This document shows positions 36,530 to 63,890 of a DNA stretch of 64,000 nt, piece after piece. Location: IMG/VR virus record IMGVR_UViG_3300032007_000014; one strand, given 5' to 3'. Each line of letters starts with the position of its first letter. The first letter of the stretch is position 1. Source of the stretch: a virus. Its lineage: Duplodnaviria; Caudoviricetes. The notes under the pieces were generated by a model. That model was given only the letters and a program-made list of their open reading frames with translations. It had not been told where the DNA came from and searched no databases. The translations under genes were made by a program, and so were the position numbers.

Positions 36530-36559
36530 TTCAACATTACTATTCATAGTAATGTTGAA
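36530..36559 (-). promoter_or_regulatory. Palindromic late-promoter-like element P1 (TATG points at gene 36498)
   Basis: TTCAACATTACTAT-TC-ATAGTAATGTTGAA, 14-bp perfect arms. Confidence 0.75.
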
Positions 36560-36649
36560 ACATTTTCAATTGGCATTCCAAAAAAATAAATTCTTAGGAT
36601 CAGGGATGGATTGCTCCATCCCTGACCCCTATAATGTCAAGAGATAAAA

Positions 36650-37627
36650 TCACTTATTGTCAAGTTCTTTTTCTCTTCTTTCAATATGTTCACGTCTCCA
36701 CTGATCAGTTGGTTTGTTTCTCACATCAAGCATCTTTTTCTCGTAGTTCAAATTGGCTCTATCAATTCTGGCAAGAATTGGAGTGAGTTTTCCAAGAGTT
36801 ACGAGAACAATGCGTTTGTCTGCAAGATTTTCCTTTGTCTCTGGTTTCTTGAATAGAATGCTATCCGCCTTTTCTTCCAGAGATTCAATTTCTTTCTCTG
36901 TCGCTTCAAGACCATGCTTGATATCAAGCATTCCTTTATTAGCATTTCCTGTTATAAGAGAGATATCACCGAACTCGCTATATTTCTTCTCTTTATAATT
37001 CCTCTTATCTTCTTCGCTCATAGATTTGACGAAAGATTCAAGAAATTCGAGAGATCCAGAATCAGTCTTATAAAAGACTTGACTTCCATAACGCAAGAAT
37101 GCATCTACATTCCTGTCATTATGTCCTGTCCAGTTGTGACTCGGTGTCCTGGATTGATGTGCAACCATCAAACATTGTTCCATTGGTTTCTTCTCAGGAA
37201 GTCCAGTACATGGAATATCATCTTCAGTGGGAACCTTCTTTGTTTCTTTCAGTTTCTTCTCAAGTTCCTCACGTTCTTTGGCACTACGTTTGTTGAAGAA
37301 TCCTGTAATAAACTCCACAATCTTCCTGATAATTTTCCGCATGAAGTCAAACACAGCTTTGGCACCAGTGGCAATAGCTTGTCCGATACCTTCGAGACAA
37401 GCATCTTTGTCATCCGTACGGATATTCATACTTTCGAGGGTGCCACCAATTAAGTCCATGACTTGTTCTGTGATCCCATAGGTCTCTATGTTTTCCTGAA
37501 GTGCGATGAAGTCACTTAGTTCTTCCATAGCTCTGTCCAGATCTTTGATCTCTGAAGACAGATCCAACTCTTCTGTAGTTGATAAGTCCTGAACAACAGC
37601 GACATTTTGTTCAACTTTGAATTTCAT
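36650..37627 (-). CDS. Internal head protein paralogue (phiKZ internal-protein-like)
   Basis: MKFK leader, ENIETYGITEQVMDLIGGTL...ACLE-G propeptide, amphipathic FDFMRKIIRKIVEFI; late motif at 37666-37675. Confidence 0.78.
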   Translation of the reverse strand: MKFKVEQNVAVVQDLSTTEELDLSSEIKDLDRAMEELSDFIALQENIETYGITEQVMDLIGGTLESMNIRTDDKDACLEGIGQAIATGAKAVFDFMRKIIRKIVEFITGFFNKRSAKEREELEKKLKETKKVPTEDDIPCTGLPEKKPMEQCLMVAHQSRTPSHNWTGHNDRNVDAFLRYGSQVFYKTDSGSLEFLESFVKSMSEEDKRNYKEKKYSEFGDISLITGNANKGMLDIKHGLEATEKEIESLEEKADSILFKKPETKENLADKRIVLVTLGKLTPILARIDRANLNYEKKMLDVRNKPTDQWRREHIERREKELDNK

Positions 37628-37755
37628 TTACATCATCCCCTTTGTGATGTGTTATAAAGATTTGTCATAAAATGGACTAGCAACCATAGGCTAAAACCAA
37701 CCCTTCGGACGATAATATAGCTTAAATAAACTTAAAACTTCGGAGAATTGAACTT

Positions 37756-39669
37756 ATGGCCAAACGTGATGTTGTTAGTGATAATGACAGTTCTTGGCTG
37801 AAGCAACCATATGGTGTGATCATAGGTAAGGATTATAAGACTTATGAACTCGCATTGTTGGAAGCACTCACTAAAGCACTGGCAGGATCACCTGGTTCTA
37901 CTGGCTACGTCATGTCAGAAGAAGAAGCACGTAAACGTGCGAAAAACCTTATCATCCAAAATAAGCAAGAGAGGAACGGGGGTATATCCGATCCTTATCA
38001 GTATCAATCACCTCGTGTATCTGATGCATCAGTGGGTGGTAATGATGCGATCAATCCTTACTCTGCATTTTGTTTGGATGATGACATCGTGCACGATCTT
38101 CACAAATGTTCTGGTAACATTTATGGAATGGGTCGTGTCTACAATGAAATCTACGAGTCAAAACAACAGATTCTGTATTTGACAATGGGTGTTCCAAAAT
38201 ACAACAACCTTGACAAGTACTTCATGAATGCCAATGACAAGATGGTTGCCAATCTTGCTGATAATGGATACATCAGCATGGCTGTCAAACTTGGCAATCT
38301 CTTGGCAAAGGGAGTAATGCTTGCAATCGAGTTACCTTGGTTGCCGATCATCTGGGCGAAGGATCTGATGTTTGCATCCAAGAAACTGGATGTCACGGAA
38401 TACTTTTATCTGTATTCATCCATGGTGGTGTACTACAGAACTGTGAACACTCTTCTTTCTCATGTTGCAGTCAATATGGGATTGTACGGTGCATTCGGTT
38501 CACAAAAAGGTTCCAACATGTCGACAGCTCAGCTTGCAAGATACAACAAGAATCTTCCCACCATTATGAAAGATGGTCCGGATATCTTTACGATCATCAA
38601 CAAGAGAGCTGCTCGTCTTGGTAAGTCATCCAAAGTTGCAACAACAGATGATCTTATCAACAAATGTAGAGTCCAAGGAAAGAAACTGGATATCTTTGCC
38701 AAAGGTAAAGGAAGTACTTCCAATGGATCTACATGCAAAGCACCTTCTGTTTGGAACAAATTCACTGGCGCGCTCGTCAGTACTTCTCTTGCAGGAAGTG
38801 ACTTCATTGGATTCCGTGTAGAAAAGAGCACAGATGCAAGTGAATCATTTTCCAACAGTACAAAAGACTCTCCACTTGGATCACAATTGAATGGTATGGT
38901 GGATGCCAACCGTCAGAGAAACATGAGCGAGTTTGCTCAAAGCAAAGGTATGGCTGCATTTGCAATGAATGCTGTCAACCAAGCAAAGAGCGCGCTTCAA
39001 GCTATGGCTGGTGGATTGAAATCATTCACTCAGTATGTGGTCACCAGTAATGGATACTTTGATCTTCCTCAGACATGGTCGGGTTCTACCTTTTCAAGAT
39101 CGTACAGTTTCAGTATGAGATTGAGAGCAAGAACTGGTGGAGATAATGTGTCGATCTTTCAATCGATTATGATTCCACTTTGTCTGCTTATGGCAGCAAC
39201 ACTCCCAAGAGGTGCTGGTTCTTCAACTTACACATCTCCATTTATCGTGAGAGCATTCTGTAAAGGTATGTTCAGCATTCCTGCTGGAATTATCACAACT
39301 CTGTCGATCAAACGAGGTGATGGTGAATTTGGTTGGAGTATCAACAGAATTCCGACTGTTATCGATGTGTCTTTCCAGATACAAGATCTCAGTCCCATTC
39401 TGTTCATCTCACTTGCTGGTGAAGGTGGGTTCTTGAAAGCTCTTAGTAACAATACAAAGTTACAAGAGTATCTCTCAACACTTTCTGGTATTGGTTTGCG
39501 CGAACGTTATTTCCGTCTTGGACAGATCAAACGCAAACTCGCAACTGCTGTGTTGATCAATAAGAACACCACATTCTCATCCACTTACTGGGGAACTGCA
39601 CTGGGTGATACTGCTGTTGTCAAGATGATTACAGCAATGAGTCCTTGGGATCGCATTCCGAACAATTAA
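37756..39669 (+). CDS. Baseplate/tail structural protein, phiKZ gp182-like
   Basis: DASVGGNDAINP, GMGRVYNE, FRVE..ESFSNS, YTSPFIV, GIITTLSIKRG motifs. Confidence 0.78.
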   Translation: MAKRDVVSDNDSSWLKQPYGVIIGKDYKTYELALLEALTKALAGSPGSTGYVMSEEEARKRAKNLIIQNKQERNGGISDPYQYQSPRVSDASVGGNDAINPYSAFCLDDDIVHDLHKCSGNIYGMGRVYNEIYESKQQILYLTMGVPKYNNLDKYFMNANDKMVANLADNGYISMAVKLGNLLAKGVMLAIELPWLPIIWAKDLMFASKKLDVTEYFYLYSSMVVYYRTVNTLLSHVAVNMGLYGAFGSQKGSNMSTAQLARYNKNLPTIMKDGPDIFTIINKRAARLGKSSKVATTDDLINKCRVQGKKLDIFAKGKGSTSNGSTCKAPSVWNKFTGALVSTSLAGSDFIGFRVEKSTDASESFSNSTKDSPLGSQLNGMVDANRQRNMSEFAQSKGMAAFAMNAVNQAKSALQAMAGGLKSFTQYVVTSNGYFDLPQTWSGSTFSRSYSFSMRLRARTGGDNVSIFQSIMIPLCLLMAATLPRGAGSSTYTSPFIVRAFCKGMFSIPAGIITTLSIKRGDGEFGWSINRIPTVIDVSFQIQDLSPILFISLAGEGGFLKALSNNTKLQEYLSTLSGIGLRERYFRLGQIKRKLATAVLINKNTTFSSTYWGTALGDTAVVKMITAMSPWDRIPNN

Positions 39670-40658: not shown

Positions 40659-40692
40659 CATCTACCATCCGGACTAGTCCGGATGGTAGATG
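40659..40692. terminator. Bidirectional terminator (34-bp perfect palindrome)
   Basis: CATCTACCATCCGGACTAGTCCGGATGGTAGATG between convergent genes. Confidence 0.75.
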
Positions 40693-46284: not shown

Positions 46285-46311
46285 CATAGGATGTTCCTAG
46301 ACAATTCTATG
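46285..46311. promoter_or_regulatory. Back-to-back late-type promoter half-sites
   Basis: ACATCCTATG (minus, 46294-46285) and CAATTCTATG (plus, 46302-46311), each facing its gene. Confidence 0.65.
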
Positions 46312-46339: not shown

Positions 46340-47995
46340 ATGGCTAATGGACCATTGAACATCCACCTTCTCGACGTGGATAAATTCATTCGAGAGCATG
46401 GGTGTAAAGAAGTGACCAGTACCTTTGTGCATGCTCCTTCTTCCAATCAATTCCATGAAGCAGGTCTGTTCTCAGAACAGATCTTTGGTAATATTGCAGA
46501 TCAGAGAAGATTGATAACTTTTGGTTACATCAATCTGAACTGCAAGATCTTTGCACCTCATGTGTTTCAGATCATTCAATCTTTGAAGAGATTCTACATC
46601 GAGATCATGAGTGGAAAGAGCTATGCCATCTGGAATGAAGAAGTGAATGACTTCGATCGTGCAAGTGATGCTGATCCGAATGCAGATACTGGATACACCT
46701 TCTTCTTGAGTCATTTCTTTGAGATCGATTTCTTGAAGAATGCTTCATTGAAACGAAACGATAAAGTTGATGTCTTGAAGAAATATCAAGACAGACTTCT
46801 CATTGACAAGTATCTTGTGATACCTGCTGGATTGCGTGACATCAAGGTTGATGAAGCACGTCAAGAAAAAGACAGCATCAATAACTTGTATGTGTCATTG
46901 CTGAACAACGCAAAAGCTATGCCACCAACAGGTGCCAACAAATCCATCTATGATACCATTCATTACGCCATCCAACGCAAGGTGAATGAAATTCATCTTT
47001 ATGTGGCTGATATGATGAAAGGAAAGAAAGGATTCATGGAGGGTAAGTACGGTGCGCGTTCCATCGCACAAGGAACACGTAACGTTATCACAGCATCCTC
47101 TATGGAATCCATCAGTTCCAACTCTGAACAATATCACAAGGTGGATGAAACAAAGATTCCTTTGTTCCAATGTGCAAAAGGATTCTCTTCTCTTGTCATT
47201 TACCAAATGAAACACAACTTCTATTCCACTGTGCTGGAGAATAGTTCTGATCAAGTTCCTTTGATCAATCCAGACACGTTGAAATTGGAGTATGTTCCGA
47301 TTGACGAAGCTGAGAAGGACAAACTACTTGGAACAGAAGGCATGATGAAGTTCATCGACCTGTTCCAGGATGGTGAATTCCGATTCAAACCTGTAACTGT
47401 GGTGTCTGATAAGAAGAAGTATTGGATGTATCTTGTGTATGACACAGGAAAGACAATCAACATCTTCCGAAATATCGATGAGTTCAAACTTGCAATGGAA
47501 AGCAAACATGTGGAGTTCGATCCGAAATATGTGAGAGCTCTCACAAACTGTGAATTGCTTTACATGGCAACTTACGCTGCAAGTTACAACAAGCATGGTA
47601 CTGTGACACGATATCCCATCACAGATGAACAGAGCATCTATATCAGCAAGGTTCACTTGATGAGTACAACTCCAAGTCGAGTTGTGTTTCTCAAATCAGA
47701 TGTTGGATCGGATACTACGTATGATACGAAGTTTCCAGAATATCCAATCATCGGAGAGAACTTTGTCGATGCGATGCTTCTGCATCCTACAAGATTGAAA
47801 GCACTGGGAGCAGACTTCGATGGTGATACATGCTCTTGGATTCCAATCTTGAGTGAAGAGGCGAACAAAGAATGCGAACAATACATACATTCATTATCCA
47901 ACTACATCCTTCCAAGTGGACAGATGCCGTTGGCTATGGATGACTTGTGTTTGCTCACACTTCACAGTCTCACCATGGATCCACCGAAAGAGTGA
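46340..47995 (+). CDS. Virion RNA polymerase beta' subunit (phiKZ gp180-like, catalytic)
   Basis: GLFSEQIFG, FGYINL, VIPAGLRD, GKKGF, TRYPI and catalytic LGADFDGD. Confidence 0.93.
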   Translation: MANGPLNIHLLDVDKFIREHGCKEVTSTFVHAPSSNQFHEAGLFSEQIFGNIADQRRLITFGYINLNCKIFAPHVFQIIQSLKRFYIEIMSGKSYAIWNEEVNDFDRASDADPNADTGYTFFLSHFFEIDFLKNASLKRNDKVDVLKKYQDRLLIDKYLVIPAGLRDIKVDEARQEKDSINNLYVSLLNNAKAMPPTGANKSIYDTIHYAIQRKVNEIHLYVADMMKGKKGFMEGKYGARSIAQGTRNVITASSMESISSNSEQYHKVDETKIPLFQCAKGFSSLVIYQMKHNFYSTVLENSSDQVPLINPDTLKLEYVPIDEAEKDKLLGTEGMMKFIDLFQDGEFRFKPVTVVSDKKKYWMYLVYDTGKTINIFRNIDEFKLAMESKHVEFDPKYVRALTNCELLYMATYAASYNKHGTVTRYPITDEQSIYISKVHLMSTTPSRVVFLKSDVGSDTTYDTKFPEYPIIGENFVDAMLLHPTRLKALGADFDGDTCSWIPILSEEANKECEQYIHSLSNYILPSGQMPLAMDDLCLLTLHSLTMDPPKE

Positions 47996-48006
47996 TCAAC
48001 ATTCAT

Positions 48007-48045
48007 CTTATCGGGGAGGGTTCACCCCCCCCCCGATAAGGTTCT
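48007..48045 (+). repeat. Poly-C hairpin element, copy 2
   Basis: CTTATCGGGGAGGGTTCA-C10-GATAAGGTTCT. Confidence 0.85.
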
Positions 48046-48074
48046 ACAATATTTTGGGGAGAATAGGAAATATC

Positions 48075-50028: not shown

Positions 50029-50841
50029 ATGAAATTTAAAACCACAAATCACGATGCCTCAAGTGAAGGTCTTGGATTCGGAGATGGTGTTGCACTTGGT
50101 CTTGCATTGCCTTATCTGATTGTAATCGGACTTGCCACAATCGTGGGTCTCGTTGAAATGATTGACAAGTGGCGTGACAGCAAACGTTCACCTGCTGAAC
50201 GTCTTGCACGCAAACTAGATCGACTCACGAAAGAGAAAAATTATCTCTGGTACAACAATGAGGAGTTCCCTGATATGTGGGGAAAGTCCCCTGATCAGCA
50301 AGATTACGAATGGGGATATCATCTCGAACCTTCCTCCAAGGTTGCAACTCCGAGACTGTCTGTCGACAATGTTGTATCATCTGCAGAATTTATCGTACAG
50401 ATTGGCAAACTCAAAGCTTTCGCTGAAGGAGTTGCAAAACTGAGCGACACAAATAATTGCGGTACTGAGATCGACAAGATATTCAAGAAATCCTTCGGCA
50501 AGAGTATGATCATCGAACAGAACAAGTGCATGTCGATCACCATGAAACGAGAAGTTGCGACATGGCCGACTAATGAATACTTTGCGCATCTCAGCATTCC
50601 CATGTCAAAGATCAACAAAGCATACATGGCACTTATTCCAGCTTATACTAAGCTGAAACAGAATATCGATGAGATCATCAAAGCAGAGACCAAGGGTGCT
50701 GCAAAGGAAGAACTTGAAGGTCGTGTGACCTATGTGAGAACATGCGAGTTCATTCTCTCCATCCATGATTACATTGAACATCAGCTCTATGGTCAGCTTG
50801 ACCGTATGGCTGAAACTGTGGATGTGGTTCCCGTTTGGTAA
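50029..50841 (+). CDS. Putative head-packaged protein with TM helix after the leader
   Basis: MKFKTTNHDASSE-G then hydrophobic helix; AAGGA RBS. Confidence 0.72.
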   Translation: MKFKTTNHDASSEGLGFGDGVALGLALPYLIVIGLATIVGLVEMIDKWRDSKRSPAERLARKLDRLTKEKNYLWYNNEEFPDMWGKSPDQQDYEWGYHLEPSSKVATPRLSVDNVVSSAEFIVQIGKLKAFAEGVAKLSDTNNCGTEIDKIFKKSFGKSMIIEQNKCMSITMKREVATWPTNEYFAHLSIPMSKINKAYMALIPAYTKLKQNIDEIIKAETKGAAKEELEGRVTYVRTCEFILSIHDYIEHQLYGQLDRMAETVDVVPVW

Positions 50842-50920: not shown

Positions 50921-52030
50921 TTACTTGCCTTCGTCTTTCTTGCCGGGGGCTTTGGCGACGAGAGTCTTGCATTTCATGCAAGCTTCGTGCATGGACCACG
51001 CCATTTCATTGATGCAGGCGCCGACACCCTGGGACAGGTTCTGAATGGCTTCGAATTTGGCGCGCAGAATGAGTTTCTTCTGTGCATCATATTCTTTCTC
51101 TTCTTTCGTGCGCTTGTCGTTGAACCAATCACGAATTCTGGCGAAGAAGCCGCGCTTGTCCTGCATGGCTTTGTCGAACTCTTTGTTGCGAGCTTTCGCC
51201 GCTTCATAGATCGACTGGAATTCCTTCACAAGATCGCCGAGATCTTTGCAGGTCTGCTGAAGCGTACGTGCATCGAAACCATGCTCACGCAGGGTCTTCA
51301 TTTCACGTTCCGGAAGGTTGTTCCTCCAGCCATTCCACCACTGTGCATTTTCGTCGATGGTCCAGCTGTCGGGAGCACCCCACAGTTTGCCGGCGGTACG
51401 CTCGATGTCAGCCAGTTTGAACTTCTCATCGAAGATTTCGGAAACAGGTTTCTTCAGGAGCTTGATGCAATCCTGACAGGCCTTGATCTGAGAGGAGAAC
51501 TGCTTGAAGGAGTAGCTGTTGACAGCGACTTCATCGAGTGCTTCATTGACTTTGTTGCCGAATGCCTCATCCAGAGAACGGACGTAGTTGTAGTACTCTT
51601 CGTACTTGCTGTAGAATTTGGCTGCGCCGGCAAGTCCCATGACAACCGATGCAACGATTGCGATGGCATATGCGGTGAGAAGAGCTTCAACAAGCGCTTC
51701 ATTGGATGCTTCGACATCACCCTTCGCAAGGTCAAGGCATTTGCCGACAAATTCCTGGTCGTCCATGGTGGACAGAGCTTCAACCGAGCATCCGAATGCA
51801 TCGGCAAGATCCTGACGCAGTTCAGGTGTCAGAGTCTCGACAGCGACTTTGCCGATGGCTTCGCGACGAGCGGCGATGGTCTCAAAGGACTTCTCGATCG
51901 CGGTAGCCGCTTCGAACTGAGCCATCTCCTTGTTGAATTTGCGCTCAAGCTGGATGTCGTGCTGAAGGTCTTCCAGAGTGAAAGCTTCAACAGATGCAGC
52001 AGGAGCTGATTTCTGTGACGAGAATTTCAT
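50921..52030 (-). CDS. Putative internal head protein with TM helix
   Basis: MKFSSQ...ASVE, CSVE and ASNE sites followed by a hydrophobic helix; GAGGA RBS. Confidence 0.75.
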   Translation of the reverse strand: MKFSSQKSAPAASVEAFTLEDLQHDIQLERKFNKEMAQFEAATAIEKSFETIAARREAIGKVAVETLTPELRQDLADAFGCSVEALSTMDDQEFVGKCLDLAKGDVEASNEALVEALLTAYAIAIVASVVMGLAGAAKFYSKYEEYYNYVRSLDEAFGNKVNEALDEVAVNSYSFKQFSSQIKACQDCIKLLKKPVSEIFDEKFKLADIERTAGKLWGAPDSWTIDENAQWWNGWRNNLPEREMKTLREHGFDARTLQQTCKDLGDLVKEFQSIYEAAKARNKEFDKAMQDKRGFFARIRDWFNDKRTKEEKEYDAQKKLILRAKFEAIQNLSQGVGACINEMAWSMHEACMKCKTLVAKAPGKKDEGK

Positions 52031-52251: not shown

Positions 52252-53271
52252 ATGAAATTCACTTCAACTGTCAAAGACAATCACGAAGGACTCTCTGATG
52301 TTGAGTTCTACGCACTTGTCGACAACATGAATGGAGATCTTGATGCACTTGATCGTGAAGACGATGCATCGAGTGCTGTCATTCTGAACAACCTCCATTC
52401 ACTGGAAGCTCTGATCGGATGCACGACAGAAGATTTCGTGAAGGACTTCTGTGCATCGAATGAAGATCTCGCATCCATGTACAATGGTGATCTGGAAGCA
52501 TTCAAGAAAAGCGTCCATGATGAGATCGTGTCCATGGAAGGCGTCATTGACGAATGGTTCGGCGATGGCATCATCAAGGCTCTGGTTGGTCGTAAGATGA
52601 CCACGCTCGAATATCTGAAACCAGCTCTTGATGAATGCGAACAGAGACTCGCTCAGTGCGACGAAAAGAAGGTCGAGTCTCGTGCGAAGATCTGGATCTT
52701 CGGTCGTGTCATCTCTCGTTTCCTCCCCTCAACAGATGCCTACTACAAGAACATCGCCGCTCTCGAAAAGGCGGCTGGTGTTGTCAAGAGTTTCTCCAGT
52801 CTTGACAAGTTCGAGGCCCCCAAAGTGATGGATGCTCTCAAGGACTCCACCTATTGGAATGCGGCAAAAGGAAAACTGAAAGGTCAGTCTGACAACGACT
52901 GGGCTTATGTTGCCATTCGTTCACTTCCTGCACTTCCGTATGTTGGATTTGCTGCTGGCATCCACAATGCATTTTTCTGGGATCCCGACAAACCGGTGTC
53001 CACTCGTGGATGGAAATCCAAAGCTGATTTCGAGAACGGCATCAAAGAAGCAAGGAAGCTCATCAAGATCATGGAAGAGACTGATGCTGCTTGCAAGAAA
53101 CTTCTCGGAAATGCGCAGCCTGAACTGAAGAAACAGGGACATGAAGCTGCATCTGTGTGCAAGTTCATTGTCGCAGAGTGCGGACATCTTGGACGTGGTA
53201 TCGTGACCGCAGCTAAGAAAGTCACTTCTGGATTTTTCGGACGAGTTGGACGCAATATCGTCCACGCATAA
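52252..53271 (+). CDS. Putative internal head protein
   Basis: MKFTST leader; SLE, SNE and SME-G cleavage-like sites; acidic pro-region and basic mature region. Confidence 0.75.
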   Translation: MKFTSTVKDNHEGLSDVEFYALVDNMNGDLDALDREDDASSAVILNNLHSLEALIGCTTEDFVKDFCASNEDLASMYNGDLEAFKKSVHDEIVSMEGVIDEWFGDGIIKALVGRKMTTLEYLKPALDECEQRLAQCDEKKVESRAKIWIFGRVISRFLPSTDAYYKNIAALEKAAGVVKSFSSLDKFEAPKVMDALKDSTYWNAAKGKLKGQSDNDWAYVAIRSLPALPYVGFAAGIHNAFFWDPDKPVSTRGWKSKADFENGIKEARKLIKIMEETDAACKKLLGNAQPELKKQGHEAASVCKFIVAECGHLGRGIVTAAKKVTSGFFGRVGRNIVHA

Positions 53272-53333: not shown

Positions 53334-54371
53334 TTATTCTTTTCCAAATGAAACCATTTTTTTATCGGAATCAGTATTACTTCCAAGACCATAACCTGCT
53401 CTGAGTGCAGATGCAAGTTTTTTCATGATGGTGATGTCTGTCCGGAAAAGATTCAAGACATCTTTGATAAACTTTGGAAGTTGTGTTTTTGCGGCGGAAA
53501 TGAGTGCTTTCGTTTCAACCTTTCCATCATCTTTCGCCTTAGTGAACCGACGCAATTCTTTCTTGATATCGTCAAGCGTGTGTTTGCAAGATATAAGCAT
53601 ATCTGCCGCGGAGATAATATCCAAAGGTGTTCGCTTGGGATCGTAGCCAAGTTTTTTGAGTGATTCTTGAGGATCCCCACCACCACCATCCATCAGGATA
53701 CTCATACCAGTAACAAACCAATCCACTTCGATGCCGAACACACCAGGAACATTCTTTTTGGTCGTATCAATTCCGACGACTTTGGTACGACCTTTGTTTG
53801 ATTCGAGAACATTGTTGATTTCACTGATGGATTTTGATGGCACGTCGAAATCAAACTTTTTGACAACTGCCGCCACGGTGCCTGTCAGCGTAGCAATATC
53901 ATGAGTGAAGTCAAGAAATTTTGATCTCTCAATCATTGCAGCTGCAACAAACTTCGATTCATCGAACTGAAGTTTACCTCCTCGCGAATCTTCAACAATT
54001 TTCTTGGAGAATGCCACGAGTGCATTGCAAGAATGTTCAACGCCGACGATATATTTATCAATGAATTCGATGATTTTGTCAATCACTGTTTTCATGATTT
54101 CGGCAATCGACTGAACAAGTCCTTCCAGACATGCATCCTTATCATCGATACGGATGTTCATGCTCTGCAAAGTACCTCCAACGAGATCCATCACAGGTTC
54201 GGTTATACCGAACTTTTCGATATTCTGCTGAAGCATCTGAAGATCGTTGAGTTCTTCAAATGCCTGATCAAGAGATGATGTATCGAGAGTATTCATCAGT
54301 GCTTCCACTGATGCAATATCCTCTACAACCAAATCCTGAACAGTAGAATTTGATTCGAGTTTGAATTTCAT
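53334..54371 (-). CDS. Internal head protein paralogue
   Basis: MKFKLE...NIEKFGITEPVMDLVGGTL...ACLE-G. Confidence 0.78.
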   Translation of the reverse strand: MKFKLESNSTVQDLVVEDIASVEALMNTLDTSSLDQAFEELNDLQMLQQNIEKFGITEPVMDLVGGTLQSMNIRIDDKDACLEGLVQSIAEIMKTVIDKIIEFIDKYIVGVEHSCNALVAFSKKIVEDSRGGKLQFDESKFVAAAMIERSKFLDFTHDIATLTGTVAAVVKKFDFDVPSKSISEINNVLESNKGRTKVVGIDTTKKNVPGVFGIEVDWFVTGMSILMDGGGGDPQESLKKLGYDPKRTPLDIISAADMLISCKHTLDDIKKELRRFTKAKDDGKVETKALISAAKTQLPKFIKDVLNLFRTDITIMKKLASALRAGYGLGSNTDSDKKMVSFGKE

Positions 54372-54427
54372 TTTGTTGTATCCTTCGTTGAATGCTGACA
54401 CACTGATGTCTTGCTATACACACGTAG

Positions 54428-54465: not shown

Positions 54466-54499
54466 ACTAGAGAAGGAGCAGCAACGCTCCTTCTCTAGT
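54466..54499. terminator. Terminator hairpin sharing its stem with 57507-57542
   Basis: ACTAGAGAAGGAG.../...CTCCTTCTCTAGT. Confidence 0.75.
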
Positions 54500-54511: not shown

Positions 54512-55420
54512 TCAGTTATTTGTTTGTTCTTTTTCAGATTCATGAAACTTTTGTCCATAACTTTTCCCACTCGTATAAATGCGATTGAGAATTGTTGCAA
54601 GTTTCATACATCCTGAAAGACAGTCTTTTGAACCCTTTAAGAAGTATTCTACAGATTTGTTTTCACTCTCGTTCAGAATATTTCTTGCAGCATAAAGTCT
54701 TTCATTCTTGAATACTTCATTCCTCAAATAATCACAAAGTTTTCCAATTTTCTTCACAGATGAATCCGCTTCAATCATAGTCGTCTGGATTACATCTTGT
54801 GGAGTGGAATAACCTTTTTTCTTATAATTGGATTCAGCGTCATCCATTGATGCTACAAGTTCATCAGAGATTTCGATATTTCCAGCATCATTGATTTTGA
54901 AGAGCAATCTATGCATCTTCACCATATGTTCGCCGCTCCAATCAACATCATTACCTGATGCAAAATCTGCAATATCTTTCATGAATTTTTTATCTGGGAT
55001 GCCATGCATAGAAATCGTCAGACCTTTATCTTGAAACTTTTTGACAGTATCTGAAATTTCTTTTGCTTCCTTTGGATCGTGTTTGTTGATGATACCTTTG
55101 ATAAAGGTAATGATCTTATCAACAAGCTGTTTGATGAACTCCCAGACTTTCTTGGATCCTTCTTTCAGTTTGTCACCGAGTCCTTCAAGACAAGCTTCCT
55201 TGTTCTGAATAGAGATGTTCCAGGACTCAAGTGTCCCACCGATCAGATCCATGACAGGTTCCGTGATGCCATATTTTTCAATATTGGCATGCAGTAGAAC
55301 CAGATCATCGAGATTCTCAGCAGCTTCGCACAGATCAACATTCAGAAGAGTGTTGATATCCTGTTCAAGAGCGCTGAAATCCACAGGTGTTTCTGATTTC
55401 AGGTTTGATTTGAATTTCAT
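54512..55420 (-). CDS. Internal head protein paralogue
   Basis: MKFKSN...NIEKYGITEPVMDLIGGTL...ACLE-G...VWEFIKQLVDKI. Confidence 0.78.
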   Translation of the reverse strand: MKFKSNLKSETPVDFSALEQDINTLLNVDLCEAAENLDDLVLLHANIEKYGITEPVMDLIGGTLESWNISIQNKEACLEGLGDKLKEGSKKVWEFIKQLVDKIITFIKGIINKHDPKEAKEISDTVKKFQDKGLTISMHGIPDKKFMKDIADFASGNDVDWSGEHMVKMHRLLFKINDAGNIEISDELVASMDDAESNYKKKGYSTPQDVIQTTMIEADSSVKKIGKLCDYLRNEVFKNERLYAARNILNESENKSVEYFLKGSKDCLSGCMKLATILNRIYTSGKSYGQKFHESEKEQTNN

Positions 55421-55505
55421 GGCGTTTACTCACTTTGTTGTGATTTGTATAAGAACAAGAAGACACACATATGAAAATTATCGTCAGCAGATTGACACTA
55501 TCTAG

Positions 55506-55800: not shown

Positions 55801-55916
55801 GTTTCAATCTCCTCATTGTTGTTGGATTTCACACGTGTAATATATGCTCTAAATAACATCACCTACAGGGAGAATATCCCTGTAGGTGATGCTAATGAAA
55901 TCAAGTATGTTCTCGA

Positions 55917-57398
55917 TCAATAGATGATGTCAGAAGGTCCACAATCAACAGCTTTACCGTCGACCACAATAAGACCAACGCCATGTTCTTCATCCCATAC
56001 ATCAGGTGTAGAATATCTACCTGTGAGAACAATACCCACAGCAGCTTTCCACTTACCACCCTGTTTGATGTAAGTTCCAACAGGATATGCAGACTCAAAG
56101 TCCTTCTTCAAATCAGCATAAGTCAGTTTCTTACGTTTCGAAGTCTCAGTGACACTGTCGTGATAGATCTGACACCGATTTAGAATCATGTCAGCAGCAC
56201 TTTCAATGATCTTGTCAATCTTTGGTATCACCATGTTGAATTGATCAACCATATTTGTGTCGATACCAAATTGAGACAATTTTGAAGTTTGTCCACCAAT
56301 TGTCCGATCAACACCGCATTCAAGATACACACCACATGCCACTTGTTTCCCGAATACCGTGAAACGGATCTTCGCGACATATCCTCCCTCAAGATCTCCC
56401 TTCATGGAAGCAGGATTGAAAGATTCAAGAGAAGATCCGCATTCTGTATATGCTTTCATGTTCTCATACATGAAGCTTTCAACAGATGCATCAGATCCGT
56501 AATAACCTTCAACTCCTGCGAACACAGAAACAACTTTGTCATCGCGAATGCTGAGACCAATGTTGAGTTTTCTGCTCACGATGGAGGACTTGTTCACCTT
56601 GACATTCTCATCAATCTTCTTGAGAGATTTGACAACTTTGTCAAAGGTATTTGGAATGAGTGTGACTGCATTGCACACAACATTGACGTCATCGAAGAAT
56701 TCAACTCCTTCAACCTGTGCGTCATCATTGTAGTACACGTGCATGTAACCGAAGTCATCGACAGGGTATTTCTTTGACTTGGTTTTCTTAAATTCCTTGA
56801 AGGATCCTTCACCCATCTTGGAACGAAGTTGGTCTCTCTTGGTACCGAATTTGATACCACCAGCTTCTTTTCCTGGATTGATGCTGATGGACTTGGGTTT
56901 ATTGGACCCATTCAACCCTTCAAGACCTTCTGATGATTTGTCACCAAATGACTCTTTGTATTCGTTTTCAATGAACGCAAAAAGTTTCATGGATTTGGTG
57001 GATTTCTCATCGAACACAGGACTTGAGTCATGTTGATACCAAGACACTTTGTCTGATGAATCAGCACAAAGATGGTTACCAAATCCATCACTTCCGACAA
57101 CAACACGATCGATCTTTTTATTCTTAAGACGATCATCGTCTTCGAATAATGATCGTGTCTGTTCAATTGCAAGCTTCAGATCGCTCACATATTCTGTGCT
57201 CTTGCTGAAGTACAAACCTGCATATTTTTTGAAGAACTCTTTTGTTTGTGAGCCAAACTTGATTCCAAGTTCTTCTTCAGCTTTCTTGATGTCAGCGTCA
57301 GATGCCATGTATTCCTTCTTGGAAGTCCACACTTTTCCTGGAGTAAGTGGTATCTGAAGATTTTCAAGAGATGCTTGAAAACTTGTTTTGAAAATCAT
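55917..57398 (-). CDS. Head-packaged multidomain protein with SMI1/KNR4 (SUKH) and other immunity-like domains
   Basis: ASDADIKKAEEELGIKF..TKEFFKKYAG...DGFGNHLC; INPGKEAGGIKFG; WDEEHGVG; SxE sites in the linkers. Confidence 0.75.
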   Translation of the reverse strand: MIFKTSFQASLENLQIPLTPGKVWTSKKEYMASDADIKKAEEELGIKFGSQTKEFFKKYAGLYFSKSTEYVSDLKLAIEQTRSLFEDDDRLKNKKIDRVVVGSDGFGNHLCADSSDKVSWYQHDSSPVFDEKSTKSMKLFAFIENEYKESFGDKSSEGLEGLNGSNKPKSISINPGKEAGGIKFGTKRDQLRSKMGEGSFKEFKKTKSKKYPVDDFGYMHVYYNDDAQVEGVEFFDDVNVVCNAVTLIPNTFDKVVKSLKKIDENVKVNKSSIVSRKLNIGLSIRDDKVVSVFAGVEGYYGSDASVESFMYENMKAYTECGSSLESFNPASMKGDLEGGYVAKIRFTVFGKQVACGVYLECGVDRTIGGQTSKLSQFGIDTNMVDQFNMVIPKIDKIIESAADMILNRCQIYHDSVTETSKRKKLTYADLKKDFESAYPVGTYIKQGGKWKAAVGIVLTGRYSTPDVWDEEHGVGLIVVDGKAVDCGPSDIIY

Positions 57399-57469
57399 GT
57401 CAACTCCTTATGAATTGATATTGAAGATAACACACATGATAGAAGTTGCTCCGATCTATCGACACCTAG

Positions 57470-57506: not shown

Positions 57507-57542
57507 ACTAGAGAAGGAGTCAGATCTGACTCCTTCTCTAGT
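57507..57542. terminator. Terminator (36-bp perfect palindrome)
   Basis: ACTAGAGAAGGAGTCAGATCTGACTCCTTCTCTAGT downstream of 57558-58439. Confidence 0.7.
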
Positions 57543-57557
57543 TAAGATATAATGAAC

Positions 57558-58439
57558 TCAGTTCGAAGCTTTGTCAAGTTTGACTGCAATCCTTGATGCA
57601 GATCTCACTGATTTGGCAATGTAAGGCATAAGCTTACTGATGAGTTTGCTCACCAGTTTGAAAGACTCTGCTTCATCATTGTCTTTCACATTGGCAGACG
57701 AAGCAACCTTCTTTGCATATGCAACACATTCATTGGAGAACTTGATCAGTCCACCATATGCATCAATCATACGAATGGAATCATCGAGAACGTTGTCAAT
57801 GGAAGAGTATCCTTTGACAGACAACTTGATGTCATCACATGCATCGATGAACTTCTGATCCAGCTCCAAGGTACCTGCGTTCTGATCAATGGTCCCCAGT
57901 TTGATCACAGCATTCAGTCCCTTCAGGAATCCCCATACAGAAGTTGTCACACTACTCACCTTGGTGTTACCAAGTTGAATAATGGAGTTGACATACTTGG
58001 AGGGGATAAGACCTGTTGCATCTGTGTACTGATCCAACCTTTTACCAGACAGTTTCTTCTTCAGATTGATCAGTCTTTCTCTGTTGAACTTGACCAGTTG
58101 TTCATTGACCCAATCCCTGATCTTCTCATAGATACGAACAATGAACTCCCAGATTTTACGAGCGCCTTCTTTGATGCGCTCTGCAAGATCTTCAAGACAC
58201 TTGTCTTTGTCAGTGATGTTGATATTCCATTCTTGAAGAGTACCACCCACAAGATCCATAACTGGATCTGTGATACCATACTTCTCAATGTTGGAATAGA
58301 GAATCTGACAATCACTGATGATAGATTCCATAGATTCCAATTCTGTGAAATCAATAACACAGATATCCTCCATCGAATCACTCAATGATTCCATATTTGG
58401 AATTGTCTGCTCGACAACTCCTGTTTGTTTGAATTTCAT
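57558..58439 (-). CDS. Internal head protein paralogue
   Basis: MKFKQT...NIEKYGITDPVMDLVGGTL...KCLE...IWEFIVRIYEKI. Confidence 0.78.
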   Translation of the reverse strand: MKFKQTGVVEQTIPNMESLSDSMEDICVIDFTELESMESIISDCQILYSNIEKYGITDPVMDLVGGTLQEWNINITDKDKCLEDLAERIKEGARKIWEFIVRIYEKIRDWVNEQLVKFNRERLINLKKKLSGKRLDQYTDATGLIPSKYVNSIIQLGNTKVSSVTTSVWGFLKGLNAVIKLGTIDQNAGTLELDQKFIDACDDIKLSVKGYSSIDNVLDDSIRMIDAYGGLIKFSNECVAYAKKVASSANVKDNDEAESFKLVSKLISKLMPYIAKSVRSASRIAVKLDKASN

Positions 58440-58479
58440 AACTCACCCTTCATTGCATTAAAGTGTGCCTAAATACCGT

Positions 58480-58490
58480 CATAGTATCGT
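58480..58490 (-). promoter_or_regulatory. Unpaired late-promoter half-site ACGATACTATG
   Basis: Identical to the inner arm plus centre of P2/P5 but with no partner arm; faces gene 58439. Confidence 0.72.
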
Positions 58491-58542
58491 CCGAATAAAA
58501 AAAAGAGACCTCGGGTGGGTGATACCCGAGGTCTTCTTTTGT

Positions 58543-58971: not shown

Positions 58972-59089
58972 GATGCATTTCCTTTCTTGATTTAAGGTTT
59001 GAGTGCGCACGTCACTTGAGTAATATATGCATTAAAAGAGAAGAGAGACACGATGTCTCTCTTCTCTTGACAGAATGTGTTATATTCCC

Positions 59090-59119
59090 TTCAACATAAC
59101 TATTCATAGTTATGTTGAA
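59090..59119 (-). promoter_or_regulatory. Palindromic element P7 (TATG points away from gene 59148)
   Basis: TTCAACATAACTAT-TC-ATAGTTATGTTGAA; differs from P1 by one compensated base pair. Confidence 0.75.
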
Positions 59120-59147
59120 TTCTAGCACAAACAAGGAGATTACTCAA

Positions 59148-59963
59148 ATGGCATTCCCTACAAAAGTAGTACCGTTTTCACAAGCATGTAAGACATGGTT
59201 GAATAACACATATGCTCCAAAGATTCATTATCATGATGATCGATACAGTAAATTAGGTCACACGCATCCAGATAGTATTGCAGGTAATATGCCAGATTTT
59301 TCAAGATCAAAATCACTCGGTGCTCAAGAAGTATGGAAATCACGCACATCTGAATGCTACAAAGAACCAGGTACTAATAACACTGTAACTGGTGGATGTC
59401 CGTACGTCCTCAAAATAAAACACCCGTGTTATGTCATACTACAATTCCAAGATGTCTCGAAGGCTACTGGTGACTCTGAATGGGGGATGTGGTGGGGTAC
59501 TAATTATCGTCACGTATGTGCACTCAATCAAGCTGACGACAACAACACCGGAACAGCTATCAGAAAAATGACAGATGCCAATGGTTTTTCAGGACTCAGT
59601 TATGGAGTGAATTTCTTTACATTCTTTCGAATTTGTGATAACATTGAAACTGCTGGAACCATTGCATTACCAATGACCAATACTGATTGGTACTACAGAC
59701 CATACATTGGTTCTGGAGGGTCGAGGAATGAAGCTTGGGAGAGCTTTGATTTTAAACTGATACCCATGCTTGGCACTCCATCAGGAACATTGTTAGTAGA
59801 GAGATACATGTTTACCGCAGACAATAGTGTATCATCCATTCTCAATTCTAATGTTACATTAGGAACCATGAGTGGGAATAACAATGTGATGACATATTAC
59901 AACAAGGATTCGAATCCTACAGAAAGCATGTCTATAACTAGACCAGGAAAATTTTATGCATGA
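59148..59963 (+). CDS. Tail-fibre-tip/receptor-binding paralogue (MAFPTK family)
   Basis: MAFPTKVVPFS...HYHDDRYSKLGHTH then MPDF; divergent beta-rich C-terminus. Confidence 0.72.
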   Translation: MAFPTKVVPFSQACKTWLNNTYAPKIHYHDDRYSKLGHTHPDSIAGNMPDFSRSKSLGAQEVWKSRTSECYKEPGTNNTVTGGCPYVLKIKHPCYVILQFQDVSKATGDSEWGMWWGTNYRHVCALNQADDNNTGTAIRKMTDANGFSGLSYGVNFFTFFRICDNIETAGTIALPMTNTDWYYRPYIGSGGSRNEAWESFDFKLIPMLGTPSGTLLVERYMFTADNSVSSILNSNVTLGTMSGNNNVMTYYNKDSNPTESMSITRPGKFYA

Positions 59964-60024
59964 TACAAGAGACAAGAGGAGATGTCTCCTCTTGTCTCTT
60001 ATTCATTATTTTGTTAGTTTGGTA

Positions 60025-60052
60025 TCACTATTACTATTCATAGTAATAGTGA
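60025..60052 (-). promoter_or_regulatory. Palindromic element P8 (TATG points away from gene 60088)
   Basis: TCACTATTACTAT-TC-ATAGTAATAGTGA, 13-bp arms. Confidence 0.75.
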
Positions 60053-60087
60053 ATTCTGAAACCCAAACAACAGAAGGAACATACAAC

Positions 60088-60603
60088 ATGGCATTTCCAA
60101 CCAAAGTAATTCCATTGTCAGATGCATTTAAACAGTGGTTAAATGCAACCTTTGCACCTAAGGTGCATAAACACACAATGTCCGATATTACTGGGCTTAA
60201 TCCAATTGGTGGATCGATATACATTGTAGACGAGGGCGATATATCGAATTCAAATGAAAACACTACCATGAAAGTGTATAGAGGAGACGGTACATTACTT
60301 TCAACAAATATTACGGGTCATTGGATACAGTATTCAAACGATCTTATCGATCAATGGTTTGAATTACCACCAAATGATTACGGACATTATGATGGTGCTA
60401 TATATCCAAAATCTAAAGTAGTGTTTTCAAAACCTTTTAAAACCACATCTTACAGTATATACATGCAAGTATTTCGTGCAGATGCCAATGCTGCGGATGG
60501 ACATGGGTATGTTGAAGTAAAATATAGATACACTACTCATTTTACCTTTGACACCGCCGCATTAGCAAATTCGTGTTACATGGTAAGAATGATAGGATTC
60601 TGA
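60088..60603 (+). CDS. Tail-fibre-tip paralogue (MAFPTK family) with fibre C-terminal domain
   Basis: MAFPTKVIPLS...HKHTMSDITGL; WIQYSNDLIDQW...VVFSKPF fibre-tip motif. Confidence 0.72.
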   Translation: MAFPTKVIPLSDAFKQWLNATFAPKVHKHTMSDITGLNPIGGSIYIVDEGDISNSNENTTMKVYRGDGTLLSTNITGHWIQYSNDLIDQWFELPPNDYGHYDGAIYPKSKVVFSKPFKTTSYSIYMQVFRADANAADGHGYVEVKYRYTTHFTFDTAALANSCYMVRMIGF

Positions 60604-62141: not shown

Positions 62142-62176
62142 AGGTTAGAGAGTGTCATTATGACACTCTCTAACCT
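62142..62176 (-). terminator. Terminator hairpin (17-bp arms)
   Basis: AGGTTAGAGAGTGTCAT-T-ATGACACTCTCTAACCT with U-rich tail on the minus strand. Confidence 0.7.
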
Positions 62177-63106: not shown

Positions 63107-63173
63107 AGCACACCTCCTCGTTTCTGACAAAGAGTTGTGCTATAAACTTACAGATGGATTCAGTAACTTGGTG

Positions 63174-63818
63174 TCACCAAGTTACTGAAGGAAAGTTGTC
63201 CTTCCAGTCACCTGCAAAAATAGAACTCTTGGTTGTTCCGAAGAAATATGCAAGACTACCGGATGTATAAGTACCATTTCCAGATCCAGCATTTGTGCAC
63301 CAATTTGAAGATGCTATTTTTCCATTGATACCAACTGCTGGTAGAAAGAACAGAACAGCTTTTTGTGCTTCCTGTCGCATCAACCTAAAATAGGTTGATG
63401 TTCCTGGAACTATCGGATACATGATAATATGACTTGCACCACCATCAACGTAGTTGTGATACAATACAGTTGCCTTATTTGACGCGAGTATAGTCGATCC
63501 TGATTTGAGATCATTCACGTTGTTCGCTGCGACGATGCAATAATCCATATCCTGATATTTCAACGTTGGGATCCAGTAGTACAGGTAACCAGGGACATTG
63601 CATTTCCATATCGGATTGGTTTTATGATTAACATTTTGATCTTCAAGAGTTTTCGCATTCAAGAAATCCGGCATACCTTGTGCTGGATTCACAGGAGCTT
63701 TCACATTACGGAGTAATGCGTTTACCTCCGCTTCAGTGTAGTATCTCTCATCATGGTTGTGACCAGAAGGAGAGTATTGTCTTGAAAGACTCAATACTTT
63801 CTTCAGAAAACTAGCCAT
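63174..63818 (-). CDS. Tail-fibre-tip-like protein
   Basis: HNHDERYYTEAEVN and MPDF motifs shared with the MAFPTK family; GGAGG RBS. Confidence 0.7.
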   Translation of the reverse strand: MASFLKKVLSLSRQYSPSGHNHDERYYTEAEVNALLRNVKAPVNPAQGMPDFLNAKTLEDQNVNHKTNPIWKCNVPGYLYYWIPTLKYQDMDYCIVAANNVNDLKSGSTILASNKATVLYHNYVDGGASHIIMYPIVPGTSTYFRLMRQEAQKAVLFFLPAVGINGKIASSNWCTNAGSGNGTYTSGSLAYFFGTTKSSIFAGDWKDNFPSVTW

Positions 63819-63857
63819 GTTTTCCTCCAATTCTGTTGAAAATTTGTTGTAAATCTT

Positions 63858-63890
63858 TAGGGAACTATGCTATGATAGCATAGTTCCCTA
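63858..63890 (+). promoter_or_regulatory. Palindromic element P9 between divergent fibre genes (central TATG points at 63922)
   Basis: TAGGGAACTATGCTAT-G-ATAGCATAGTTCCCTA, 16-bp arms. Confidence 0.75.

Follow-up and report, generated by a model that had tools for sequence, protein, structure and literature searches.

What do nine mirror-image elements do upstream of internal head and fibre-tip genes, and what is decided by the one or two bases at the centre of each? The elements lie in the 238-kb genome of a giant, uncultured cattle-gut phage, with related contigs from the rumen. We analysed a 64,000-nucleotide stretch of this genome (the window). The answer that we favour, with slightly better than even confidence, is that the palindromes are opposed late promoters of the phage's own polymerase, whose centre aims transcription and is flipped by template switching.

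Palindromes, hairpins and flanking genes

A first-pass annotation had described nine perfect inverted repeats, and all of them (P1 to P9, Table 1) were recovered where it had placed them. Arms of 13–17 nt surround the core CTAT-[G/C/TC]-ATAG, giving palindromes of 28–35 bp in total; the centre lies 44–114 nt from the start codon, and divergent gene starts flank four of the nine. The 31-mer of P5 is identical to that of P2. Palindromes with arms of at least 12 nt and a spacer of at most 2 nt were counted in the window and in 20 shuffles, which yielded 18 hits versus 0 in each shuffle. Across all TAT-N(1–2)-ATA cores, arm complementarity is bimodal, reaching 13–14 of 14 at nine sites and at most 11 at the rest; P1 to P9 are therefore a discrete class of sites. 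The directions previously assigned to TATG, toward five genes and away from six, were correct in every case.

A second class of perfect hairpins has purine-rich stems and a T-rich tail, and one of these lies 6–25 nt from most palindromes. In the phiKZ-type intrinsic terminator motif, which marks gene 3' ends, a T-rich tail comes after a G+C-rich stem (PMC10914365). P1 to P9 do not fit it, as their core is A+T-rich, they show no consistent T-run and four of them stand between divergent starts. Among the flanking genes, the three of the MAFPTK family are 62–69% identical over their N-terminal 29–55 residues.

Table 1. Palindromes, neighbouring hairpins, unpaired motif copies and flanking genes in the window. 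TATG directions refer to the window's alleles; genes are named elsewhere by the coordinate of their start.
Feature	Coordinates	Strand	Description
MAFPTK-family gene, fibre-tip-like	35725..36498	-	Paralogue of 59148 and 60088
P1	36530..36559	.	14-nt arms; centre TC on +; GA (TATG) toward 36498 (-)
Terminator-like hairpin with T-run	36600..36625	-	Ends gene 36650-37627, just upstream of P1
Unpaired weaker motif copy, arm + G	46297..46311	+	Score 9.1; 29 nt before beta-like RNA polymerase gene 46340
P2	49926..49956	.	15-nt arms; centre G; TATG toward 50029 (+)
MKF... gene	50029..50841	+	Faces TATG of P2; RNA depth high
MKF... gene	50921..52030	-	Faces TATG of P3; RNA depth high
P3	52127..52161	.	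17-nt arms; centre C; TATG toward 52030 (-), away from 52252 (+)
MKF... gene	52252..53271	+	Faces TATC of P3; without RNA contig
phiKZ internal-head-protein paralogue	53334..54371	-	Faces TATC of P4
P4	54428..54458	.	15-nt arms; centre G; TATG away from 54371 (-)
Terminator-like hairpin	54467..54498	-	8 nt from P4
phiKZ_IP (PF12699) internal head protein	54512..55420	-	Faces TATC of P5
P5	55506..55536	.	15-nt arms; centre G; TATG away from 55420 (-)
SUKH/SMI1_KNR4-domain protein	55917..57398	-	Faces TATG of P6; RNA depth high
P6	57470..57500	.	15-nt arms; centre C; TATG toward 57398 (-)
Terminator-like perfect palindrome, 36 nt	57507..57542	-	6 nt from P6
Unpaired promoter-motif copy, arm + G	58480..58494	-	41 nt before gene 58439
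Hairpin, T-rich tail on minus strand	59036..59068	-	In path of TATG-direction transcripts from P7
P7	59090..59119	.	14-nt arms; centre TC; TATG on minus strand, into hairpin 59036-59068, away from 59148 (+)
MAFPTK-family gene	59148..59963	+	Faces TATT of P7
Terminator-like hairpin	59967..60000	+	After gene 59148-59963; 24 nt before P8
P8	60025..60052	.	13-nt arms; centre TC; TATG away from 60088 (+)
MAFPTK-family gene	60088..60603	+	Faces TATT of P8
Fibre-like gene	63174..63818	-	Faces TATC of P9
P9	63858..63890	.	16-nt arms; centre G; TATG toward 63922 (+), away from 63818 (-)
Tail-collar-domain gene, 174 aa, start only	63922..64000 (window edge)	+	Faces TATG of P9

Late-promoter motif and RNA depth

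The late promoters of phiKZ consist of TATG, in which G is +1, and every position is needed; the annotation had likewise placed TATG over the start site; no conserved sequence is reported downstream (PMC4666361). TATG of the non-template strand is bound by phiKZ gp123 (PMC12809450). Late promoters of AR9 read AACA-(6N)-T-A/G, with the start at the last base (PMC5312081). When the centre of each palindrome was taken as +1, TAT occupied −3 to −1 in all nine arms and AAC[A/G/T] occupied −11 to −8, the AR9 register, in six of the nine sites (AACA at P1 and P7, AAC plus another base at four; the remainder have GACA, ATCA and ACTA). TATG stands on one strand of every palindrome and in both unpaired copies. 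Arm plus centre thus appears to fit the AR9 and phiKZ late promoters in both mapped registers, with the centre as the predicted +1. A split RNA polymerase subunit of the phiKZ type is also encoded by the phage, in gene 46340-47995, which matches phrog_2986 (E 9e-150) and is 33–36% identical to its best cultured relatives.

Single-base centres are always G or C, both at six sites in the window and at about six distinct sites in relatives, and TATG is therefore found on exactly one strand; two-base centres are always TC/GA. Unpaired sites had been said to end in a purine and to face their gene, and the two intergenic copies, the only ones, both end in G toward the gene. The copy running from 58494 to 58480 on the minus strand is, as proposed, identical to the inner arm of P2 and P5 plus G. 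The likeness to the late promoters of phiKZ (P119L type, TATG) and AR9 appears to extend over the motif, its register, its end at the predicted start base, its position before late virion genes and its occurrence in a phage with split multisubunit polymerase genes. Unlike in those phages, the promoter is here fused to its own mirror image in a 28–35-bp palindrome.

An asymmetry in expression is supported by one crude data set, namely the depth of assembled RNA contigs in a single metatranscriptome run (X4), with facing defined by the window's alleles. Among TATG-facing genes, depth was 51 for 50029, 61–75 for 52030 and 52 for 57398; among TATC/TATT-facing genes it was 0 for 52252, 3–4 for 54371, 2.5 for 55420, 0 for 59148, 0.1 for 60088 and ∼1–2 for 63818. 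The split is complete (three high versus six low), in line with the unequal transcription that the switch idea entails. At the divergent pair of P3, depth was 75 on the minus-strand gene versus 0 on the plus-strand gene, and at P2 it was 51 versus 7. X4 has the window base at 61278, unlike X3 and X6. The zero depth over 59.2–60.6 kb, a hypervariable region, could be due to divergence between strains.

None of the X4 RNA contigs crosses a palindrome. They start 12–49 nt downstream of the predicted starts and 9–32 nt outside the palindrome edge (for example at 49965 by P2), which also fits a transcription start just downstream of the palindrome. By P6, a contig of depth 52 covers 55911–57460, and another, 57557–58468, ends 12 nt downstream of the predicted start at the unpaired copy at 58480.

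Inversion of the centre between strains

Both centre orientations are present in natural populations. The first-pass annotation expected G/C alleles at the six single-base centres; they occur at four of these (49941, 55521, 57485 and 63874), the other two (52144 and 54443) being covered in two strains only. The centre is C at P2 in L002 and L005, C at P5 in L001, L022, L024 and L025 (G in L005 and L023), G at P6 in X3, X6, L005 and L022–L026, and C at P9 in X3, X6, L005, L022 and L023. At P3, L005 has the same state as the window, and L001 has P4 in an altered form, its centre being C and its arms bearing two mirrored changes. Linked TC to GA changes, expected at the three two-base centres, were seen at 36544-45, where L019, L020 and L021 carry the P1 centre in the opposite orientation, with TC directed at the gene, but not at 59104 or 60038: the centre is TC in all eight strains covering P7 and in all seven covering P8. 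In each covering strain, these two sites present TATT to intact, conserved genes.

Wherever a flip was found, the spacer had become its exact reverse complement within unchanged flanks (G to C or the converse at four sites, GA to TC or the converse at P1), and no arm change accompanied the flips at P2, P5, P6 and P9 in the strain comparison. Over 20 kb, 7 bases distinguish run X3 from the window, and at least 2 of these are centres; L022 differs from L023 by 4 mismatches in 8.7 kb, one at a centre. Over near-identical pairs (28.7 kb), 3 of 11 differences fell on 13 centre positions, compared with an expectation of ∼0.005. The rate of centre flips is well above that of point substitution.

Flips also affect two sites in another, distant phage species, which has an internal head protein of ∼41% identity. 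Arm changes are mirrored on both arms, as at site d (TCCAAC versus TCTAAC) and in the P4 variant of L001. Every palindrome copy is perfect. The differences of L005 in the loops of hairpins 54467-54498 and 59036-59068 are ordinary point changes, with no flip. As a point against the answer that we favour, a non-promoter palindrome centred at 63174 may be mixed too.

A proposed mechanism and its alternatives

In the mechanism that we propose, each palindrome would be two late promoters set head to head on one shared start position and served by the phage's own multisubunit RNA polymerase, of the non-virion type. Read from the outside in, an arm would be the upstream element, with AAC at −11 to −9 and TAT at −3 to −1, and we infer that transcription starts at the centre, as +1. 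Since the strands differ solely at the centre, the consensus promoter would exist only on the G strand (TATG), the opposite strand (TATC or TATT) being weak. The centre would then aim the promoter, giving an either/or choice at divergent genes and on versus off at tandem genes, where transcription in the off state would run backward into the adjacent hairpin. At short inverted repeats, template switching is known both to turn the spacer around and to homogenise the arms (PMC8604942, PMC8794818). Switching between the arms during replication is the most likely cause of the change of the centre into its reverse complement, and it probably explains the perfect symmetry of the arms as well, so that a recombinase would be unnecessary. 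Mutation would in this way alter, heritably and reversibly, the set of internal head protein and fibre-tip paralogue genes that is strongly transcribed.

A neutral flip-flop, in which functionally symmetric elements (DNA structures or promoters that work both ways) often have their centre inverted by template switching and expression is unaffected, seems unlikely to us, although several findings suit it. Inverted repeats are known to give rise to spacer inversion as a by-product; TATG points away from the sole downstream gene at P4, P5 and P8 in the window and at P6 in most strains; and at P7 and P8 it is never directed toward their genes. Gene 52252, which faces TATC in both the window and L005, differs between them by 17 synonymous and 0 non-synonymous changes, which indicates strong purifying selection. 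An 'off' state could therefore not be permanent, and judging from the coding sequence, TATC-facing genes must be expressed at some time or some level. Against neutrality, none of about 12 distinct single-base sites has A or T at its centre, as expected only if a G at +1 matters; the unpaired copies carry G toward the gene, the phiKZ polymerase requires G (PMC4666361), RNA depth is unequal at P3 and P2, and the terminator-like hairpin loops show point changes rather than flips between the same two strains. If a dimeric phage protein bound the palindromes to regulate late cargo genes, and the likeness to TATG promoters were incidental, this would account for the dyad symmetry, the location upstream of functionally related genes and the conserved inner core. 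Such an operator is improbable, as even the positions at which sites differ from one another are perfectly mirrored inside each site, which protein contacts do not demand; moreover, the register appears to be that of two mapped polymerase promoters, lone half-sites with G precede two genes, and the restriction of the centre to G/C is left unexplained.

We give similarly little credence to the idea that the palindromes act at the RNA level, by ending, processing or stabilising transcripts. The predicted fold is strong (−8.5 to −14.8 kcal/mol with DNA parameters, z −7 to −10) and the palindromes adjoin other hairpins in tandem gene arrays; however, no transcript is expected to span both arms at the four sites between divergent starts, there is no U-tract, and upstream genes already have separate terminator-like hairpins. 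The arm sequence is also conserved in distant species (a 14-mer common to L006, L012 and L014), no G-T intermediates occur in ∼25 copies, RNA contigs of X4 leave the palindromes uncovered and no Rfam family matches. That a site-specific recombinase, with its gene elsewhere in the genome, inverts the centres in a programmed way is extremely improbable, even though both orientations exist and the genes under control belong to the host-interaction type, as in classical invertons. Known invertases act on sites at least 100 bp apart. Here the two flanking sites with a loopable segment between them are absent: the 13–17-bp arms abut a 1–2-bp centre, which cannot be synapsed and exchanged in that manner, and no recombinase or invertase was found among the window proteins scanned (part of the window's genes). 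The alleles, the motif fit and the RNA asymmetry partly support the original idea of a switch, while 'invertible switch' in the recombinase sense misfits so short a centre.

Opposed promoters flipped by template switching would resemble the invertible promoters of Escherichia coli fimS and Bacteroides capsule loci and the fibre-gene inversion of the phage Mu G segment (Gin) in changing promoter direction or host-recognition genes heritably and reversibly, and in having several independent sites per genome. Those systems need an invertase, and the segment inverted between their two recombinase sites measures 100 bp to several kb, whereas here 1–2 bp change and the replication machinery would suffice. 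Contingency loci, where simple-sequence repeats drive phase variation, likewise use a mutation-prone control sequence for frequent, reversible on/off change with no dedicated enzyme, but here the mutable unit is a palindrome centre rather than a repeat tract, and direction is altered rather than spacing or reading frame. Known template-switch spacer inversions (quasipalindrome mutagenesis, loop inversions in RNA hairpins) share the perfect arms, the reverse-complemented centre, changes that are mirrored between the arms and a frequency far beyond that of point substitution. Their spacers are deemed neutral or a mutation, while the centre here is a predicted promoter +1, so that each flip should re-aim transcription.

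Whether the palindromic promoters are kept so that template switching re-aims them is a more tentative matter; such recombinase-free phase variation, a bet-hedging on virion diversity, is possible but less than probable. If so, virions of one population would differ in ejected internal head proteins and fibre-tip paralogues, and bets on host range and counter-defence would be encoded in a single SNP-like base.

The hairpin promoters of the phage N4 virion RNA polymerase offer a further parallel, as they are extrudable hairpins with key bases in the loop, but they have 5–7-bp stems and serve a single-subunit polymerase. Extrusion of P1 to P9 as cruciforms is a conjecture; their predicted loops read T-G-A or T-T-C-A.

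Palindromes, neighbouring genes and late-promoter motifs

The nine perfect inverted repeats reported by the first-pass annotation (P1–P9) were all recovered, with arms of 13–17 nt, centres of G, C or TC and the core CTAT/ATAG. Scanning the window for arms of at least 12 nt and spacers of at most 2 nt gave 18 palindrome hits, versus 0 in each of 20 shuffles. Over all TAT-N(1-2)-ATA cores in the window, arm complementarity is bimodal, with nine sites matching at 13–14 of 14 positions and the others at 11 or fewer, and no half-decayed copies were found among these cores.

The window sequence is identical to a portion of a 238,223-bp bovine-gut metagenome contig (ENA ERZ27256887 k141_92418), and the runs containing it come from 16 studies and are of rumen or bovine-gut material; uncovered stretches and runs with a small share of the window were not used as evidence for absence or habitat. 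Gene 46340–47995 encodes a phiKZ-type split RNA polymerase beta-like subunit (phrog_2986, E 9e-150), whose best cultured-phage proteins are just 33–36% identical. A megablast search of the cultured-phage collection with 12 kb gave no match, and a protein-based locus search of IMG/VR plus two DNA patterns found no DNA-level relative, the pattern matches L029 and L030 being rejected as unrelated chance matches. Relatives (contigs from other data, numbered L001 onwards) were gathered by one DNA pattern and by homology to two proteins encoded nearby. No PHROG or Pfam family was assigned to most of the controlled genes (named here by start-codon coordinate).

Directly 3' of the polymerase gene, 738 nt (47992–48729) are missing from sequencing run X6, in which 47991 abuts 48730, and a C-run at 48024 varies in length by run (+1 or +3 C). 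Contig L005 has ∼270 nt extra at 47821/47822 and a polymerase subunit of 509 aa versus 551 aa. Neither an Rfam intron nor a Pfam domain was detected in ORF 47853–48731.

The late promoter of phage AR9 is AACA-(6N)-T-A/G, starting at the last base (PMC5312081), and that of phiKZ is TATG, with G as +1 and all four bases required in vitro; the phiKZ beta-like subunit gp123 contacts TATG on the opened non-template strand (PMC4666361, PMC12809450). Counting the centre as +1 and reading inward, six of the nine sites have AAC at −11 to −9, and every site has TAT at −3 to −1. An arm-derived weight matrix found just two good unpaired intergenic copies in the 64 kb, before gene 58439 and polymerase gene 46340, each ending in G and pointing at its gene. 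Given this register and the unpaired G-ending copies, each palindrome is best read, from sequence, as two opposed late promoters with one common start position. An ordinary one-way promoter was rejected, because in three of the window's five tandem sites, and for most strains at P6, TATG is directed away from the sole downstream gene. In the literature searched, late promoters that are palindromic and aimed by their centre were not described, and no Rfam family reached its gathering score over 36000–64000.

A second class of hairpins, with perfect, purine-rich stems (often ...GGA), loops of 0–4 nt and T-rich tails, occurs across the window, mostly 3' of genes, and lies 6–25 nt from most of the nine palindromes. 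The order within the insulated gene cassettes is hairpin, palindrome, leader, gene. These hairpins are comparable to the conserved terminator motif of phiKZ (PMC10914365) and are probably the terminators of this lineage. On the gene side of the palindromes, the motif GTGTC or GTGTGTC recurs at a distance of ∼8–12 nt, with more copies deeper in the leaders of MKF... genes; it may act as a signal in the leader RNA or belong to the true start region.

Cassettes are gained or lost at palindrome or terminator borders (59119–60083; L001 3017–3058), and L001 lacks both gene 55917–57398 and P6. In contigs of X6 and of X1, the likely source run, 31 other bases link the end of a P7-like arm with a gene start resembling that at 60083; the genome probably has a paralogous cassette at another place. 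The protein of 55917–57398 (SUKH/SMI1_KNR4 plus DUF6985), placed among head-cargo genes, has 493 aa in the window versus 326 aa in L005 and L022–L025; the long form coincides with the sole strain where the P6 TATG points at the gene.

Coordinates of palindromes and associated features, with palindrome centres in window orientation unless stated
Feature	Coordinates	Centre alleles or description
P1	36530–36559	Toward gene 36498, GA: window; TC: L019, L020, L021
P2	49926–49956	G: window, X3; C: L002, L005
P3	52127–52161	C: window, L005 (two strains)
P4	54428–54458	G: window, L005 (two strains)
P5	55506–55536	G: window, L005, L023; C: L001, L022, L024, L025
P6	57470–57500	C: window/X1 only; G: X3, X6, L005, L022–L026
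P7	59090–59119	TC: 8/8 strains
P8	60025–60052	TC: 7/7 strains
P9	63858–63890	G: window/X1 only; C: X3, X6, L005, L022, L023
phiKZ internal-head-protein paralogues (PF12699)	36650–37627, 53334–54371, 54512–55420, 57558–58439	Adjoin palindromes
Other MKF... proteins		Adjoin palindromes; no family match
SUKH-domain protein	55917–57398	Adjoins palindrome
MAFPTK paralogues (n = 3)	35725–36498, 59148–59963, 60088–60603	N-terminus in common, C-termini differ
Tail-collar-domain proteins		Adjoin palindromes
Second-class hairpins	719–750, 2734–2767, 12833–12863, 14497–14531, 19200–19227, 26884–26911, 35683–35718, 36600–36625, 40659–40692, 50855–50890, 57507–57542, 59036–59068, 59967–60000, 62142–62176, 63159–63189	Purine-rich stem
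GTGTC/GTGTGTC motif regions	49957–49970, 52100–52126, 52162–52180, 54405–54427, 55485–55505, 57445–57469	

Centre alleles among strains

All six single-base centres in the window are G or C, as are those of ∼6 more distinct sites in relatives, and all two-base centres, in the window and relatives, are TC or GA; exactly one strand therefore reads TATG. A or T was never seen as a centre, though either would likewise put a purine on one strand, and this absence fits the phiKZ need for G. The expected exchange of G and C was found among related contigs at P2, P5, P6 and P9. At P1, the two bases change together while the flanks stay the same, as expected for a true inversion.

The arms are unchanged in all the strain comparisons tabulated, though L005 differs from the window by 3–18% near the sites. 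Run X3 shows 7 base differences from the window in 20 kb, at least 2 of them at centres, and the 239-kb genomes L022 and L023 have 4 mismatches in 8.7 kb, 1 at a centre. In total, 3 of the 11 differences between near-identical pairs fall at 13 centre positions in 28.7 kb (∼0.005 expected). The same kind of palindrome occurs in a second species, represented by L006, L012 and L014, with ∼41% identity in the internal head protein; one 14-nt arm is identical to a P1 arm, flipped centres separate its strains at two sites, and in one case an arm change recurs in mirror image on the opposite arm. When the window is compared with L005, the terminator-like hairpins differ in their loops by ordinary point changes and by no flips.

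An assembly or sequencing artefact was rejected as the source of the flips: the 28–35-bp sites are spanned by reads, independent assemblies agree with one another (P6 is G in at least eight data sets and P9 is C in five), and P1 changes at two bases. P2 and P5 are an identical 31-mer flanking a 5.6-kb block of five genes, where Logan contigs break. Exchange or inversion between them is conceivable, yet every contig seen is colinear, and exchange as the sole source of flips was rejected because the unique-arm sites P1, P6 and P9 and second-species sites b and d flip too.

Both centre alleles may be present in some samples, judging from assembled contigs. Logan contigs of X6 end exactly before the P2 and P5 centres, one contig of run ERR2200665 begins just past the P5 centre, and the G allele at position 57485 stands at 6.9 of 11 depth in X3. 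At the centre of the non-promoter palindrome 63159–63189, one X1 contig ends at 63173 and the next begins at 63175, so that X1 may hold both alleles (T and A) at 63174; other 31-nt palindromes are crossed by contigs without a break.

Transcript depth and predicted promoter direction

Transcription was gauged in one bovine-gut metatranscriptome (X4), whose assembled phage contigs are mostly >99% identical to the window and which agrees with the window, and not with X3 and X6, at the only informative SNP (61278). With facing states taken from the window centres and depth from X4 contigs, genes faced by TATG had depths of 51 (50029), 61–75 (52030) and 52 (57398), versus 0 (52252), 3–4 (54371), 2.5 (55420) and about 1–2 (63818) for TATC and 0 (59148) and 0.1 (60088) for TATT. 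The three TATG-facing and six TATC/TATT-facing genes are fully separated (one-sided rank probability 1/84). Depths in the gene pairs at P3 and P2 were 75 versus 0 and 51 versus 7, respectively; gene 58439, behind an unpaired TATG, had 12–20. Bins of zero depth indicate that DNA carry-over is negligible, and zero depth over the hypervariable 59.2–60.6 kb could come from strain divergence. No X4 contig spans a palindrome; contigs begin 12, 24, 25 and 49 nt 3' of predicted starts, compatible with a start at the centre.

Origin and significance of the flips

Inversion of 1–2 bp between abutting arms by a site-specific recombinase is not plausible. Template switching during replication at short inverted repeats inverts the spacer and homogenises the arms (PMC8604942, PMC8794818). 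Such switching between the arms would turn the centre into its reverse complement, and would explain the flips, the perfect symmetry at positions variable between sites and the mirrored arm changes. The special feature here would be that the flipped base is the predicted +1 of a promoter.

Motif, centre constraint, strain comparison and crude RNA data make it, on balance, probable that promoter direction is set by the centre and that centres flip from one strain to another, as first proposed; flips were seen at P1, P2, P5, P6 and P9, but P7 and P8 are constant, with TATT toward intact genes in every strain covering them. That the flips form an adaptive minimal switch for virion composition is a tentative hypothesis; flipping may serve bet-hedging or may simply be tolerated. 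An element that works symmetrically and whose centre is neutral would fit the general flip-flop phenomenon, the constancy of P7 and P8 and the conservation of TATC-faced gene 52252, but leaves the G/C-only centres and the RNA asymmetry unexplained, and we consider it unlikely. An operator for a dimeric regulator is very improbable, as it explains neither the mirroring of variable positions nor the lone G-ending half-sites before genes. Against an RNA hairpin or terminator, which we judge highly improbable, stand the location of four sites between divergent starts, the lack of a U-tract, arm conservation across species and the lack of RNA contigs over the sites.

If the centre aims the promoter, gene switching would be heritable and reversible without a dedicated enzyme or repeat tract, and, since it registers as a G/C SNP, would be missed by standard inverton searches. 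Such aiming would also account for how a start motif of four bases becomes specific in jumbo phages, and for how ejected head cargo and fibre tips come to differ among near-identical uncultured giant-phage strains. Even if the flips are neutral, they would mark template switching as a major source of mutation at the regulatory palindromes of phages, and a G/C 'SNP' in a palindrome centre is not to be handled as an ordinary substitution.

Gene 52252–53271 is TATC-faced in both strains (a look-up yielded no additional strain), and the window and L005 encode the same protein (100% identity) while the gene differs by 17 synonymous and 0 non-synonymous changes. This purifying pattern implies that TATC-faced genes do get expressed at some point; switching must then outpace divergence, or else the weak direction retains some activity. 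The neighbouring gene 50029–50841 carries 37 non-synonymous and 68 synonymous differences, constraint on the cargo genes being very uneven.
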